NCBI GenBank assembly: GCA_044892525.1
Contig: CM097885.1
Coordinates: forward strand, 35,280,001 to 35,344,000
Reading direction: 5' to 3'
Length of the DNA: 64,000 nt
Origin: Schmidtea polychroa
Lineage: Eukaryota
The notes beneath the pieces were generated by a model. It was not told the DNA's origin and did not search any database. It saw only the letters and a program-made list of their open reading frames with translations. Positions 1 through 23,611 of this stretch are shown piece by piece. Position numbers and translations under genes: made by a program. Positions within the stretch are counted from its first letter, which is position 1. Each line of letters begins with the position of its first letter.

Positions 1-312
1 AGAGCAATGCTGATCTAATATTTGATTCGGAATATGATATGTTTTATCATAATTACGGATAATAAAGATACCGCTACATGTTTTCATAGCATTCCTTTTG
101 AAATCAATCTTACATTGACTATAAAATGGGAATGTATTGTACACTAATGTAAAATCTTGCAGTGCAACTTCCCAGTCACCATTTAAAGAAATCGGATTCT
201 GGAGATTGACCATGAATTTACTGGCTTGATTATCTGGATGAATAAGCGGGCAACTATTGCTTGGTAAAATAGTATAAAAATTCACTTTACTAGATCCTTT
301 TCTGATATACAT
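1..312 (-). CDS. Polinton minor capsid protein (penton), N-terminal part; open to window edge
   Basis: Manual translation NFYTILPSNSCPLIHPDNQASKFMVNLQNPISLNGDWEVALQDF matches the Polinton penton N-terminal signature; paralogous to 10326..11030. Confidence 0.85.
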   Translation of the reverse strand, partial: MYIRKGSSKVNFYTILPSNSCPLIHPDNQASKFMVNLQNPISLNGDWEVALQDFTLVYNTFPFYSQCKIDFKRNAMKTCSGIFIIRNYDKTYHIPNQILDQHCS

Positions 313-910
313 GATGGGTTTTGATAACTATGCCATTTAACATAATATTGTTTATCCTTGCCGACCTTTTTAGTTTTCAATATCTTTTGAATTCTAAATA
401 CTTTTGGGGGAGGAATAACTTGTAATTCTTGCTCATAAAACTTTCCTTGTACAATATTGTTATCATAATCACTGATGACATACATTACAGGATTCTGACT
501 AGTATTTATTTTTGAAATTACAAAGACTTCATCACTCCAATTTGTATCGAAATTTTTAATAAATGGTGATGCACTAATTTTACTAATTCTAACATGGTCA
601 CCGACTTTATATTTAGGTTTTGCAATTTTTACAGATTTCTTAGAAGTCAATGATGTTTTTGATGTAATATCAACCGGTCTCAATCCATTCAGTCCTCGAT
701 GTGATGAATGATTATAACTTGTTATTATTTTCGGTAAAGCATTTACCCATTTTTTATTACCTTGATGCACGAATAATTTCTTTAATCTCTCTCTCAATGT
801 TCTGTTAAATCTTTCAACGTGGGCAGCTTTGTATTGAGAATGTACCGAGTAATGGTTTATTTTCAATTTATTGAGGATTTCCTTGACTTTACTGTTGTAG
901 AATTCTTTAC

Positions 911-982
911 CTAAAATAATAATAATAATAATAATAATAATAATAATAATAATAATAATAATAATAATAATAATAATAATAC
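911..982 (-). other. 72-nt GT-AG intron made of (ATT)n inside the integrase
   Basis: TTAG|GTATTATT...ATTTTAG|GTAAAGAA; removal converts the poly-Ile run into the canonical QTDLGKEF catalytic motif. Confidence 0.85.
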
Positions 983-18780: not shown

Positions 18781-19736
18781 TTTAAAATGTTGTATTATTT
18801 TATTACTTTGTTGCAATATTTTTATAATCTTATAACAATTTGCTTAAATATTTTACATCTGTTGAAATATTTGAAATATTACTTTGTTGATATTTACTGA
18901 AAGACTTCACAATTTATTACAATATTCTTTTTAATTTGTTATCCGTCTTCGAAATAATGTATTGATTTGTCCCAATTAACATCATTATTTTATTAGTTTG
19001 TTGCAATATTTTTATTATTTTAGTTACAATTTGATAAATATTTTACAACTTTGTTGAAATTTTCTGAAATATGTTACTACTTTGTTGTAATATTTTCTAA
19101 TCTTGTTACAATTTGCTTAAATATTTTACAACTGTTGAAAATTTATCTGAAATATGTTATTACTTTGTTACAATTTTATGAAAAACGTTATTACTGTTTT
19201 GCAATTTGATGAAAAATGTTATTACTTTGTGGATTCATCACATTATTTTATTACTTTGTTTCAATATTTTTATAATCTTGTTACATTTTGTTTAAATATT
19301 TTATAACTTTGTTGCGATTTGATAAAATCATTTATTAATTTTTATCATTTGCTTAAATATTTTACATCTGTTGAAATATTTCCGAAATGTCATTACTTGG
19401 TTGTAATATTTTTATAATGTTACAATTTGATTAAATATTTCAGAAATAATAATAATAATAATAATAATAATAATAATAATAATAATAATAATAATAATAA
19501 TAATAATAATATTGGAAATTATGAATATGTTGAAAACTATGAAAATGTTAAAAATAATCATGAAATTGAGGCAAAAATTATAAAAATGTTCCTGAAATTA
19601 TTATGAAAATGTTAAATAAATAAACTTTAGCGTCAAAATGTATTTTTAAAATATAATTAAGTTTTAAAATACCGCAACGTAATGTATTTTTGTTCTACCT
19701 CTTCCTTGATTTTAATTGGTCAGAATTTAATCATAG

Positions 19737-22700
19737 GTGAACGGATGCACTTTATATAAATTTTGTATTGCCGAAAGTCATGAAGATGTTGGGAACTGTT
19801 AATCAGTTACATCATCATATTTCAAGATAAATGACTCTACTTTATCGGGTTACATATGTCCGGAATGTCTCATTATAACACCAGGTAGGTGGTTAATGTT
19901 TGTACGACAACACGGACACCATCTTAGAAGATTCGAAGAAACGAAGAGTATTATGATTACTAAAAGTCACTCTCTTTATACTATTAACAATTATTATTTT
20001 TTATAGTACAATCGAAAATGAATACATCATACGATCCTAAGGAGATTAAAGAATATGTTACAGGTTATGTTATTTTATTATGTTAGTTTAATATTAATTA
20101 TAAATATAGTTAAGCAAAACTCTGGCACCACAAAACGAAAGTCAATATTTTACGGAAATGGATACTCTAACATTCAATTGTGTCCACGTCGGGAGTCTGA
20201 CTTAAATGGTTCTCGCGTTGAATTGAAAAGCGATGTATCTGCAATTAATTCTCCTGACATTGTTGTTCCAGATTGTCTCATCAAAGAAATAGAAGATCAT
20301 ATTCAACGAATGGGGAAAGTAAAAATCCAATTTGGACTTTGGGCAGAGTTTATCAAAGAGGATGGTGAAATTAAAAAATGGTGTTTGTCGAATAAAGCAA
20401 TTACAATGTCATCTTCATTTATTAATGATGGAATTAAAAAATTAAAAGAAAAGTTGGAGAAATACACTCAACAAAGTAGTGGGTGGAGAATTCATAAAAT
20501 ATTAGAAGTTACTATGATTTTAACTAAATTATCAGACATAATACACGTATCTGGTAAGTTTTTACATAATATAAAATATTCATAAATGTTTTTTTTACAG
20601 GATCAAGTTACATTAAAACGCCAAATTACCTGAAAAACTGCCAGGCTTTAGTTAATGTTCAAAATAATGATCAATTCTGCTTTTTATATAGCATACTGGC
20701 CGTATTACATTATGATGACATAAAACATCAAGGAGAAAGAGTAATGAAATATAATTTAAATGGTAATATATATTTATATCATTCTAAATATATATATATA
20801 TATATATATATATATATATATATATATATATATATATATATATATATATATATATATATATATATATATATATATATATATATATATATATATATATATA
20901 TATATATATATATATATATATATATATATATATATATATATATATATATATATATATATATATATATATATATATATATATTAGAGTTTAAATGGAAATC
21001 AGATTGGTTTCCAATGAAGCTGATTAACATTTGCCAATTTGAAGCAATGAATCCAAATCTAGCGATCAATGTTCTCAAATGTAATAAAGATTAAATTAAA
21101 CAAAAAACTAATGATATTTTCAAGAATCCGTTCGTTGACTTGGTATATAGAAGTATTTCGACGGGATCTCAAATATATTTCTTATTGATTGAAGAAGGTA
21201 ATATTTCCATTAATCATTAAAAATATTAACTAAATTTTAGAATTAAATTATCATTTTTTGGCTGTAACCAATCTCGACTGCTCAATTACAGAGATAGAGT
21301 AGAAGGATTCAGAATCCAATCACATTGGTGTCATACGTGTCTTCACGGGTTTCAAAAACGTCCTGCTTTTGAAAGACATAGACATATAGGTCTTTGTAGG
21401 AAGAATGTGGAGCGGACGACTCTATACTCAATGCCAGAGAATAAATATATCGAATTTTAAGACTGGAGTAAAACTATAAAACAGCCGTTTGTTGTGTACG
21501 CGGACTTTGAATCGATATTACCTCTAGACAACAAACACTTCCAAAAACATGAGCCGATTGCATCTGAATTTGTGCTTCTGTATCAAGGTCATCCGATTCG
21601 AAATGAAACATTTGTTGGGAATAACTGTATCATTCAATTTATACAAGCATTGGATGATATAGCTACAGACATAGTTTATCCGTGGTATAAAATTAATGGA
21701 TCGAAGGAAATGATGGAACTCACTTGGGAACAGCAGAAAGAATTTACGAACCAAACTCATTGCTACCTTTGTAAAAAGATTATCAATATACCTGTTCGAG
21801 ATCATGATCATTTTACCGGTCAATATCTCGGAGCAGCGTGTCAAGATTGTAATTTAGCTAGAAGAATCAATCCGTCTTTACCTGTTGTATTTCATAATCT
21901 TCGTGGATATGACATTCATCATATATATCCCTGATTGGAATTTAAATGTTATTCCTCAATCAACAGAAAAGTTTCTCACACTTACAGCGACATCGAAAGG
22001 CAGAAGAATTAGATTCATTGATTCTTGACAATTTTTAAATAGCAGCTTGGCAAATTTTTCAAAAAATTTACCATGTCTTCCACTGACCTCAGATGTTTTC
22101 GAATCACAGATGATGACTTGTAAAACCATTTTTCCTTATGATATGGCTACATCAATGGATGGTTTACAGTCAATAACAGAATTACCACCGATTTGGGAGG
22201 GAGTTAGTCAAGAAGATTATATACATGCAAATCGAATCTGGCAACAATTCAACTGTGATACACTGCTAGATTACATGCTAGTATATCTCAAGCTGGATGT
22301 TTTTCTGTTGGCCGATGTTTCTGAAGCTTTCAGAGAAAAAAACATTTGACGAAAATGGACTTGAGGCTTTATCGTTTGTTTCCATACCCGGATTAAGTTG
22401 GGCATCAGCTATTAAACAGTTACCTGAACCGGTAGAACTTATTCAAGATCCAGAGCTTTACCGTTTATTTGAAGCTGATATTCGTGGTGGAATGACATTT
22501 ATCAACAAACATCATGTTGAAGCTGATGAATCAACACAAATTTCAAACCTAGATGTTAATAATTTATATGGATGGGCACTGTCGCAAAAACTTCCTGTTG
22601 GTGAATTTAGATGGATAAATGATCAGACTGAAATGAATGGTATTGTTGAAAGATGTGCAAATGGGGATGAGTTTGATGGAGATCGTGGATATGTTCTAGA

Positions 22701-23611
22701 GGTTGACATCGTCATTCCTGATAGTATACAAGATAAGCTAGATGATTTACCTATAGCTCCTGAGCTTTGTTATCCACCTGGTAGTAAAGTTGAAAAGCTG
22801 TTGTTAACTCATGAGCCTAAGAAAAACTATGTAGTTAATGGTAGAGTTTTGACAGAGTGGTTGAGTTAAGGCGCAAAAGTCACAAAAGTTAATCGTGCTG
22901 TAGAATTCAAGCAAGTGGCTATTTTCAAAGGATATATTGATTACAATACCAAAATGAGAGCAGCTAGTACGGATTCGTTTCAGCGAGATTATTATAAGTT
23001 AAAGAACAACAGTTTATACGGTAAAACTGTGGAAAACTTGAAGAAACGTATAAATTTGAGATTATGCAGCAAAGTATCGTAGCTGGTGACACAGATTCCT
23101 TCTTTTTAGAGTGTAAAAATGTTGATTTACACTTACAACTATATCCAAAAATGATTGAAGATGGGCTCCTATATACTTCAAATTATCCAGTGGCTGATCC
23201 ATTGTTCTCAGATAAAATTTGTTCTGTAATCGGGAAATTCAAGGATGAGAATAAAGTAAATCAATATAAAGAAGGGGTGTTTCTTCGTCCCAAGTGATAC
23301 TCACTCCAAGGCGATAAAAACACTCTAAAAGCCAAAGGAATAAGACTTACAAATTCTAATATCACCCATGAAGCCTATAAAAAGTGTATACTGATGGTGG
23401 AACAGTGAGCATCCAACAAAAGAGAATAGGAAGTGTTAATCATCAGTTGTATACTTTCATTACAGAAAAACGAGCTCTCCAATGTTTGGACGATAAAAGG
23501 TATTGGTACAATTGTAATGAAAGCTATGCCTACGGTCACTATAAGATTCGTCAAATGCATATTTCAACTGCTATGTCTAGAAATGAATGCAAATCGAAAC
23601 AAGCACTTTAA
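19737..23611 (+). pseudogene. polB: Polinton protein-primed family B DNA polymerase, at least 5 introns, decayed
   Basis: GSSYIKTP..VNVQNNDQFCFLYSILA, VYADFES, RDHDHFTG..CQDCN, FHNLRGYD, YLKLDV, LDVNNLYG, KLKNNSLYGK, GDTDS. Introns 19966-20006, 20064-20109, 20554-20600, 20763-20984 and 21198-21240 all restore frame. Confidence 0.93.

Follow-up and report, generated by a model that had tools for sequence, protein, structure and literature searches.

Probable spliceosomal introns in the integrase and polymerase genes of two interleaved Polinton families in Schmidtea polychroa

We analysed 64,000 nucleotides (nt) of Schmidtea polychroa DNA (GenBank assembly GCA_044892525.1, contig CM097885.1, positions 35,280,001 to 35,344,000; hereafter the window), in which genes of Polinton elements are interrupted by short segments with GT–AG ends. 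The window lies in an AT-rich genome of 781 Mb, with host genes nearby that include myosin, caspase, and others with introns. It holds two interleaved Polinton families, A and B, and not one element; a single element spanning 282–23611 was ruled out, as the genes fall on two separate families. Positions 1–7444 are the right part of a family-B copy, an insertion of 12.3 kb whose first 4.9 kb lie upstream of the window. Its terminal inverted repeats begin with AGTAGG, it is flanked by its own 6-bp target-site duplication, and most of its own polymerase gene (polB) has been lost. Family A forms a palindrome composed of a truncated left arm (16639–17974, minus strand), which contains inverted repeats and the 5′ part of the polymerase gene polB-1, and a right arm (18263–24237, plus strand) with an AGTAGT-type terminus; a central mini-element with family-B-type ends (17983–18258) sits between the two arms. 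In both families the ends start with AGTAG and the target-site duplications measure 6 bp. A preliminary description of this locus had assigned all interrupted genes to one intron-rich lineage, which is not supported: family B, to which the integrase, acidic, and Bcl-2-like introns belong, has a polB body free of interruptions, and the polB-1 introns are those of family A.

All eight GT–AG segments named in that description were recovered with the positions, strands, and lengths given there. Three of them belong to family B. The integrase gene (minus strand) comprises exon 1 (983–1186), whose 5′ part resumes beyond 2195, and exon 2 (282–910), which encodes the rve core and a chromo-like C-terminus (Pfam rve and Chromo matches below the cut-off). 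Between them lies a 72-nt phase-1 intron (911–982) of the form GT-(ATT)n-AG, located inside a conserved TD-G-KEF stretch and with an AG|GT context at both ends. The acidic gene (5547–5899, plus strand) consists of a 16-nt exon with the ATG, a 41-nt phase-1 intron (5563–5603), and an acidic exon that is long and has no early in-frame ATG. The two-exon Bcl-2-like gene (6023–6480, minus strand) matches Pfam Bcl-2 weakly (E 0.006–0.018, below the cut-off) and is split by a 44-nt phase-0 intron (6140–6183); exon 2, in another frame than exon 1, contains a W-x(4)-GGW motif, which we take to be BH2-like. The other five segments, all phase 1, interrupt polB-1 (19734–23611, plus strand), a protein-primed B-family polymerase gene that matches PF03175: a (19966–20006, 41 nt), b (20064–20109, 46 nt, and 41 nt in other copies), c (20554–20600, 47 nt), d (20763–20984, 222 nt, usually 41–47 nt), and e (21198–21240, 43 nt). 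This polB-1 copy is broken, its last exon aligning in five pieces with five stops. A candidate sixth polB-1 intron in the left arm (17220–17328, minus strand) has the same context in 28 of 29 copies and is deleted in the right arm; its acceptor is clear and its donor uncertain, and a firm donor was rejected, with a TATA-like box located within the candidate.

The segments had also been described as restoring the reading frame. For the integrase segment and polB-1 d this fails in the window copy, where both are stop-free multiples of three; the open reading frame (ORF) 282–1280 is consequently open even unspliced. It applies to most other copies, in which the integrase segment is 3n+1 (27 of 29) and segment d is not a multiple of three (20 of 27). 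The unusual lengths of these two segments in the window, 72 and 222 nt, are due to their (ATT)n and (TA)n runs.

Nearly all examined copies carry the segments, which are thus inherited family-wide and are not insertions specific to one copy. GT..AG ends were found in 29/29 copies for the integrase segment (55–115 nt) and likewise for the acidic (always 41 nt) and Bcl-2-like (always 44 nt) segments. For polB-1, compared across 29 other loci that represent 20 insertion sites, the counts were 29/29 for a, b, c, and e and 26/27 for d. Since these first copy searches favour intron-bearing matches, we ran a further search with a single polB exon as query, which gave GT..AG in 27/27 (a), 29/29 (b), 28/29 (c), 5/5 (d), and 27/27 (e) measured copies; none of its 150 matches had an open frame of more than 343 codons. 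The pattern of variation separates segments from exons. When 20 loci were compared against one copy, variants common to at least three of them affected 2.3%, 1.5%, and 7.1% of codon positions 1, 2, and 3, respectively, and 7.7% of intron bases, and none of the 20 splice bases. Shared indels numbered 12 in 214 intron bases (11 of them not multiples of three) versus one in 2,060 exon bases, and private indels mostly reflected exonic decay. In family B, third-position bias was found in both Bcl-2-like exons in their own frames, in acidic exon 2, and in integrase exon 2; it was also looked for in integrase exon 1 and not seen there.

Alignment to intronless homologs, which the preliminary description had proposed as a check, placed the integrase, c, d, and e segments at codons where single-ORF proteins lack any counterpart. 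The integrase is 49–71% identical to the 120 homologs listed (best 63–67%), and its junction, read with X at the break, is colinear with zero indel in 118 of them. Junctions c and e of polB-1 show zero indel in 41 of 46 homologs; at junction d, four homologs show zero difference, 32 a two-residue difference, and none an insert. Homology is uninformative for a and b because both lie in a variable linker. In one homolog (P0004) the ORF continues through an extra 15 residues at site e, which is a first hint only; a search for longer homologous proteins with exon 3 of polB as the sole query found nothing. The chance of GT plus AG is about 0.002 for each homology-fixed junction (integrase and polB-1 c, d, and e) and does not exceed 0.014 when seven positions of slack are allowed; for all four together it is below 4e-8. 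The near-pure (ATT)n and (TA)n composition of the integrase and d segments in the window copy, together with the frame kept there, might suggest that microsatellite or low-complexity sequence was inserted into individual copies of a decayed element and has GT–AG ends by chance; this view is refuted by the sharing of GT..AG among 26–29 of 27–29 copies at each segment. The small joint probability at the four junctions also speaks against it, and we consider it virtually dismissed.

Family B has a polymerase gene of its own, polB-2, which is about 50–63% identical to polB-1 and adjoins the protease gene in L097–L098 and L100; the window copy keeps only a C-terminal piece. A family B without polB, i.e., a strictly bipartite virus, was rejected on account of this gene in many family-B copies. 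A single open frame of at least 1,300 codons was present in about 60 of 150 matches (counted by eye), and polB-2 has nothing inserted at c, d, or e. A wholly intronless polB-2 was likewise rejected, as a spliced-type leader is present: its 5′ end carries three phase-1 GT–AG introns of 39–47, 44–49, and 453–811 nt, which separate mini-exons and occur in 21/21, 21/21, and 20/20 measurable copies, the 63- and 66-nt exons being invariant. For the copy in the window, three mini-exons just upstream (L109:6575–6882, minus strand) are likely this leader.

Element introns usually measure 39–52 nt with 2–20% GC and have T-rich 3′ ends. This puts them at the short end of the range of host myosin introns (47–60 nt; eight resolved, seven from 19 junction estimates and one by read-through), so that the previously claimed host-like size stands, whereas the 46-nt caspase intron cited for it could not be confirmed: the frame past its acceptor stops after nine codons. 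The caspase exon itself (48992–49243, minus strand) belongs to a single-copy host gene and encodes the QACRG motif. Ten of the 11 introns of families A and B are in phase 1, compared with two of eight host myosin introns, an excess with a post hoc P of about 0.003–0.005 even when an enrichment of G at codon position 1 is allowed for. Small exons between phase-1 introns are symmetric and could be skipped without a shift of frame. At such lengths and GC contents the segments are far too short for a ribozyme, and by eye they share neither terminal repeats nor a family sequence. An origin as self-splicing (group I or II) introns or introner insertions, for which the available texts on protist Polinton-like viruses provide precedents (group I introns, PMC12220804; introners, PMC12166617), is extremely improbable here.

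The segments with their fixed GT–AG ends and free internal length change, the codon-position bias of the exons, and the colinearity with single-ORF homologs are best explained by ordinary U2-type introns that are removed by the host spliceosome from transcripts of two Polinton families, in nearly every examined copy. We assign this reading a probability of roughly 80%.

To what extent such introns extend beyond the two families can be judged from metagenome relatives, of which 37 loci were found, 11 of them covering polB sites c–e; a scan of viral contigs gave 73 pattern matches and no confirmed relative. Three of these loci, L195, L197, and L200, whose polymerases are 55–57% identical to polB-1, have GT..AG introns of 43–45 nt precisely at sites c and e, although with other sequences, and lack intron d. 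Short N-terminal introns were also seen, by eye, in L195 and L197. The other eight informative loci have no intron at c or e, one of them having an unrelated in-frame insert near e. Trees of the C- and N-terminal polymerase parts agree in placing the intron-bearing L195 as sister to the intronless L186/L189 (support 100 and 99 in the Shimodaira–Hasegawa-like approximate likelihood ratio test, SH-aLRT), and in both trees polB-1 of family A falls among the intronless L176, L177, L183, and L184. This mixing of intron-bearing with intronless polymerases on the trees requires either repeated loss or gain in parallel. The preliminary description had inferred long nuclear co-evolution with intron gain; c and e are old enough to be shared with polymerases that are only 55–57% identical, and pure gain is too simple.

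We favour, from sequence comparison, c and e as probably ancestral and precisely lost several times, because introns turn up again at these two codons and none is present in the long last exon (870 codons). Alternatively, the introns may be real and c and e gained independently at hot-spot sites in several lineages, with neither an ancestral intron-bearing clade nor precise loss. The positions of L195 and of family A among intronless polymerases would fit this alternative, as would the different intron sequences among lineages, the exonic AG or TG that always precedes site c, and the phase-1 excess as a hint of site preference. It would have to account for the same two codons being struck in at least three lineages with the 870-codon exon left untouched, and for site e, which is preceded by G in three sequences but by A in L197. 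We consider independent gain rather unlikely, and ancestral c and e with repeated precise loss the preferred course of events.

Family A consists of two mirror arms with an outward-facing polB-1 in each, is 12.6–13.7 kb long, and has AGTAGT-type ends and 6-bp duplications. Arms are 99.8–100% identical within nine sites versus 96.5–99.8% in five between-site comparisons, which suggests that the arms may be regenerated from each other at transposition. In many copies of the palindrome (16639–24237 in the window; L092–L094, L105–L106), a family-B-type mini-element is located at the centre. No family-B marker was found in two elements followed from end to end (13.7 and 12.6 kb), in a one-armed element of 5.4 kb, or in the other partial stretches; in the 10 stretches outside polB that were checked, no further ORF exceeded 116 codons. 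We regard family A as a polymerase-only derivative and not as an autonomous Polinton: the protein-primed polymerase, inverted repeats, and 6-bp duplication are present, and integrase, ATPase, and capsid genes were not found.

Splicing itself was approached through assembled contigs from runs whose RNA nature is presumed. One contig (X1) begins at the acceptor of intron e, and its 13 loose letters equal the end of the upstream exon, as splicing predicts. The check for spliced reads that had been proposed was thus answered in part, by exon joining at intron e in one contig, while other contigs retain introns a, b, and the acidic intron. RNA neither proves nor refutes splicing, since retention is expected from decayed copies, pre-mRNA, or DNA. 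In X10, poly(A)/poly(T) loose ends were observed at L097:2900 and L097:3409. They lie downstream of the Bcl-2-like gene and of the gene next to it, which has no assigned function, and suggest an individual polyadenylated mRNA for each. In planarians, Polintons are reported to escape repression when the piRNA pathway is knocked down (PMC8532177).

A number of points weigh against splicing as the explanation or limit the conclusions drawn from it. The lone spliced contig has just 13–15 letters on one side of intron e, and among the joints listed no spliced joint was seen for any of the eight segments (the polB listing was dominated by a DNA-like run, and the integrase junction was unreadable). 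X1 record 3 bridges intron b unspliced, X3 record 15 bridges a and b, and X2 record 18 as well as X10 records 10 and 11 continue across the acidic intron. Neither this intron nor the Bcl-2-like one changes in length, the latter being variable at just one of 44 sites, and comparison of intron position with homologs is possible neither for the acidic intron nor for polB-1 a and b. The polB trees were quick ones with midpoint root and SH-aLRT as the sole support measure, and the markers behind the exclusion of an integrase from family A were those of family B only.

These points could be taken to mean that the segments are inherited and mostly unspliced, with the family-A polymerase and the interrupted accessory genes being dead passengers and the conservation reflecting only how young the copies are. 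Indeed, the letters of an intron are kept in most of the RNA-like contigs extending to it, copies are 92–99% identical, and the window copies are broken. Yet third-position bias persists across frame changes, shared frameshifting indels are almost confined to the segments, and the splice dinucleotides are invariant. Moreover, the integrase is needed for mobility and would be frameshifted by its segment in 27 of 29 copies, and c and e recur in distant relatives. We therefore judge unspliced passengers to be very unlikely, and retain splicing by the host as the explanation.

Under this explanation, the elements would be transcribed in the nucleus by host polymerase II and their transcripts then spliced by the U2 machinery. 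An intron once gained would be kept, as the DNA-to-DNA copying of Polintons presumably has no RNA stage that could erase it. Gain would have occurred mostly after an exonic (A)G, through local duplication or AT-rich filler and probably not from one introner family. Introns c and e would have been present in the ancestor of a wider polymerase clade; sister lineages would have lost them precisely, probably through recombination with complementary DNA (cDNA) of spliced transcripts, with d being younger. Family A was likely integrated in trans by a Polinton integrase, for which that of family B would be the obvious candidate; both families leave 6-bp duplications and start with AGTAG. A wider scenario, which we put forward tentatively and would not bet on, is that a broad clade of animal Polinton/adintovirus polymerases was ancestrally intron-split and that sister lineages repeatedly lost the same introns precisely, via recombination of a DNA-replicating virus with its own spliced cDNA; the phase-1 introns might then allow alternative terminal-protein/polymerase isoforms, and family A might be a satellite replicon with its own spliced polymerase that borrows integrase and capsid from family B.

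The remaining genes of family B fit a Polinton/Maverick element, which is characterised by the rve integrase, packaging ATPase (Pox_A32), protease (Peptidase_C5), polB, terminal repeats, and the 6-bp duplication; the Pox_A32 and Peptidase_C5 profile matches are both above the Pfam cut-off. Gene order in other copies is Bcl-2-like, acidic, TBP-like, ATPase, integrase, capsid candidates, protease, and polB-2. In the window, the A32-like packaging ATPase is a single ORF (2928–3569, minus strand; Pfam Pox_A32) colinear with metagenome relatives, and the TBP-like gene (3646–3984, plus strand; Pfam TBP) is kept beside the ATPase in the relatives L184 and L186. Compared with intronless single-ORF relatives, no gap the size of an intron is seen in the ATPase, protease, or capsid-candidate genes. 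The place of the capsid candidates is conserved in metagenome relatives. Their top Atlas cluster (0.98) has PF21738, a double-jelly-roll-like family, on only 10% of its members, Pfam and PDB sequence searches gave no match, and one candidate is presumably a minor capsid gene, a label we base on its position. L184 has two minor-capsid-like genes in tandem. The polymerase gene is head-on to the protease–capsid block in L183, L184, L186, L201, and L204 and in the same direction in family B.

The window copy of family B contains a private insertion of about 1 kb (1187–2194), absent from 29 other copies, which interrupts the 5′ part of the integrase gene. It comprises pieces of EAP30-like and proteasome-subunit genes (Pfam) and, at 1205–1350, GC-rich hairpin-like repeats, and is possibly a gene-capturing transposon. 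Further along, a separate truncated family-B-type fragment (9731–11440, plus strand; about 88–91% identity to family B) carries part of integrase exon 2 and capsid-candidate genes. ORFs outside both elements (12324–13196, plus strand) have no Pfam match, may contain a short intron near 12398–12438, and include a 'FIDAEYG' stretch, which we take to resemble a DEDD exonuclease motif. An extra polB fragment (30337–31300) with 91% identity to that of family B is followed by a family-B-type terminus, and fragments of hAT elements and long-terminal-repeat retrotransposons adjoin it.

Dependence of a viral replication gene on nuclear splicing has a parallel in adenoviruses, where the E2B mRNAs for polymerase and terminal protein, i.e., replication genes of a nuclear DNA virus, need host splicing and include a spliced leader. 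This leader provides the N-terminus and in that resembles the leader of polB-2; unlike here, the introns of adenoviruses are not known to divide the body of the polymerase into micro-exons, and adenoviruses are not known to integrate by means of an rve integrase. Mirusviruses, too, are reported to be intron-rich (PMC12768974), but both are virus groups different from Polintons. Among Polintons proper, the core genes of animal elements are called intronless in the accessible parts of PMC8097293 and bioRxiv 10.1101/2022.07.12.499685, in line with the preliminary statement that they are generally single ORFs. According to the former, core ORFs are intronless in all intact vertebrate Mavericks; in the families described here, the integrase and both polymerases have family-wide GT–AG introns, and polB, once in each of two mirror arms, is all that family A encodes. 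According to the latter (Widen et al.), nematode Mavericks have intronless core genes, and their intron-bearing genes are captured host cargo. Intron-bearing accessory genes near one end are a shared feature, whereas introns in core genes are not. The eupolintoviral introners of dinoflagellates (PMC12166617, as far as available) likewise place spliceosomal-type introns within Polinton-type elements, but they derive from transposons, mostly entered the elements after integration, and are located in coding regions in about 25% of cases, while the introns described here are short, AT-rich, host-like, fixed family-wide under purifying selection, and in two cases common to divergent polymerases. 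One of the papers on animal Polintons, in its available part, treats 'introns' of gene models as decay. Our literature search yielded no description of family-wide spliceosomal introns in core genes of animal Polintons; Repbase and supplements, which may already annotate exons, were outside that search. Nothing relevant was seen in the available text of bioRxiv 10.1101/2023.08.22.554363, PMC8502044, PMC6431247, 10.1101/2024.03.25.586562, PMC5803895, and PMC11296320. Best supported among the new observations are an intron in the catalytic region of the integrase and the two polymerase introns that are shared across divergent lineages with intronless sisters.

ORF-based calling does truncate such genes, which bears out the expectation that ORF-based mining would miss them; surveys that require long ORFs are likely to under-count or mislabel intron-split Polinton lineages. 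Since divergent polymerases share introns at the same codons and have sisters that lack them, they make up a small system, present in many copies, in which intron gain and precise loss can be studied. Family-wide introns in integrase and polymerase would tie Polintons to nuclear transcription and host splicing, and through splicing the host would gain a tissue-specific control point over their mobility.

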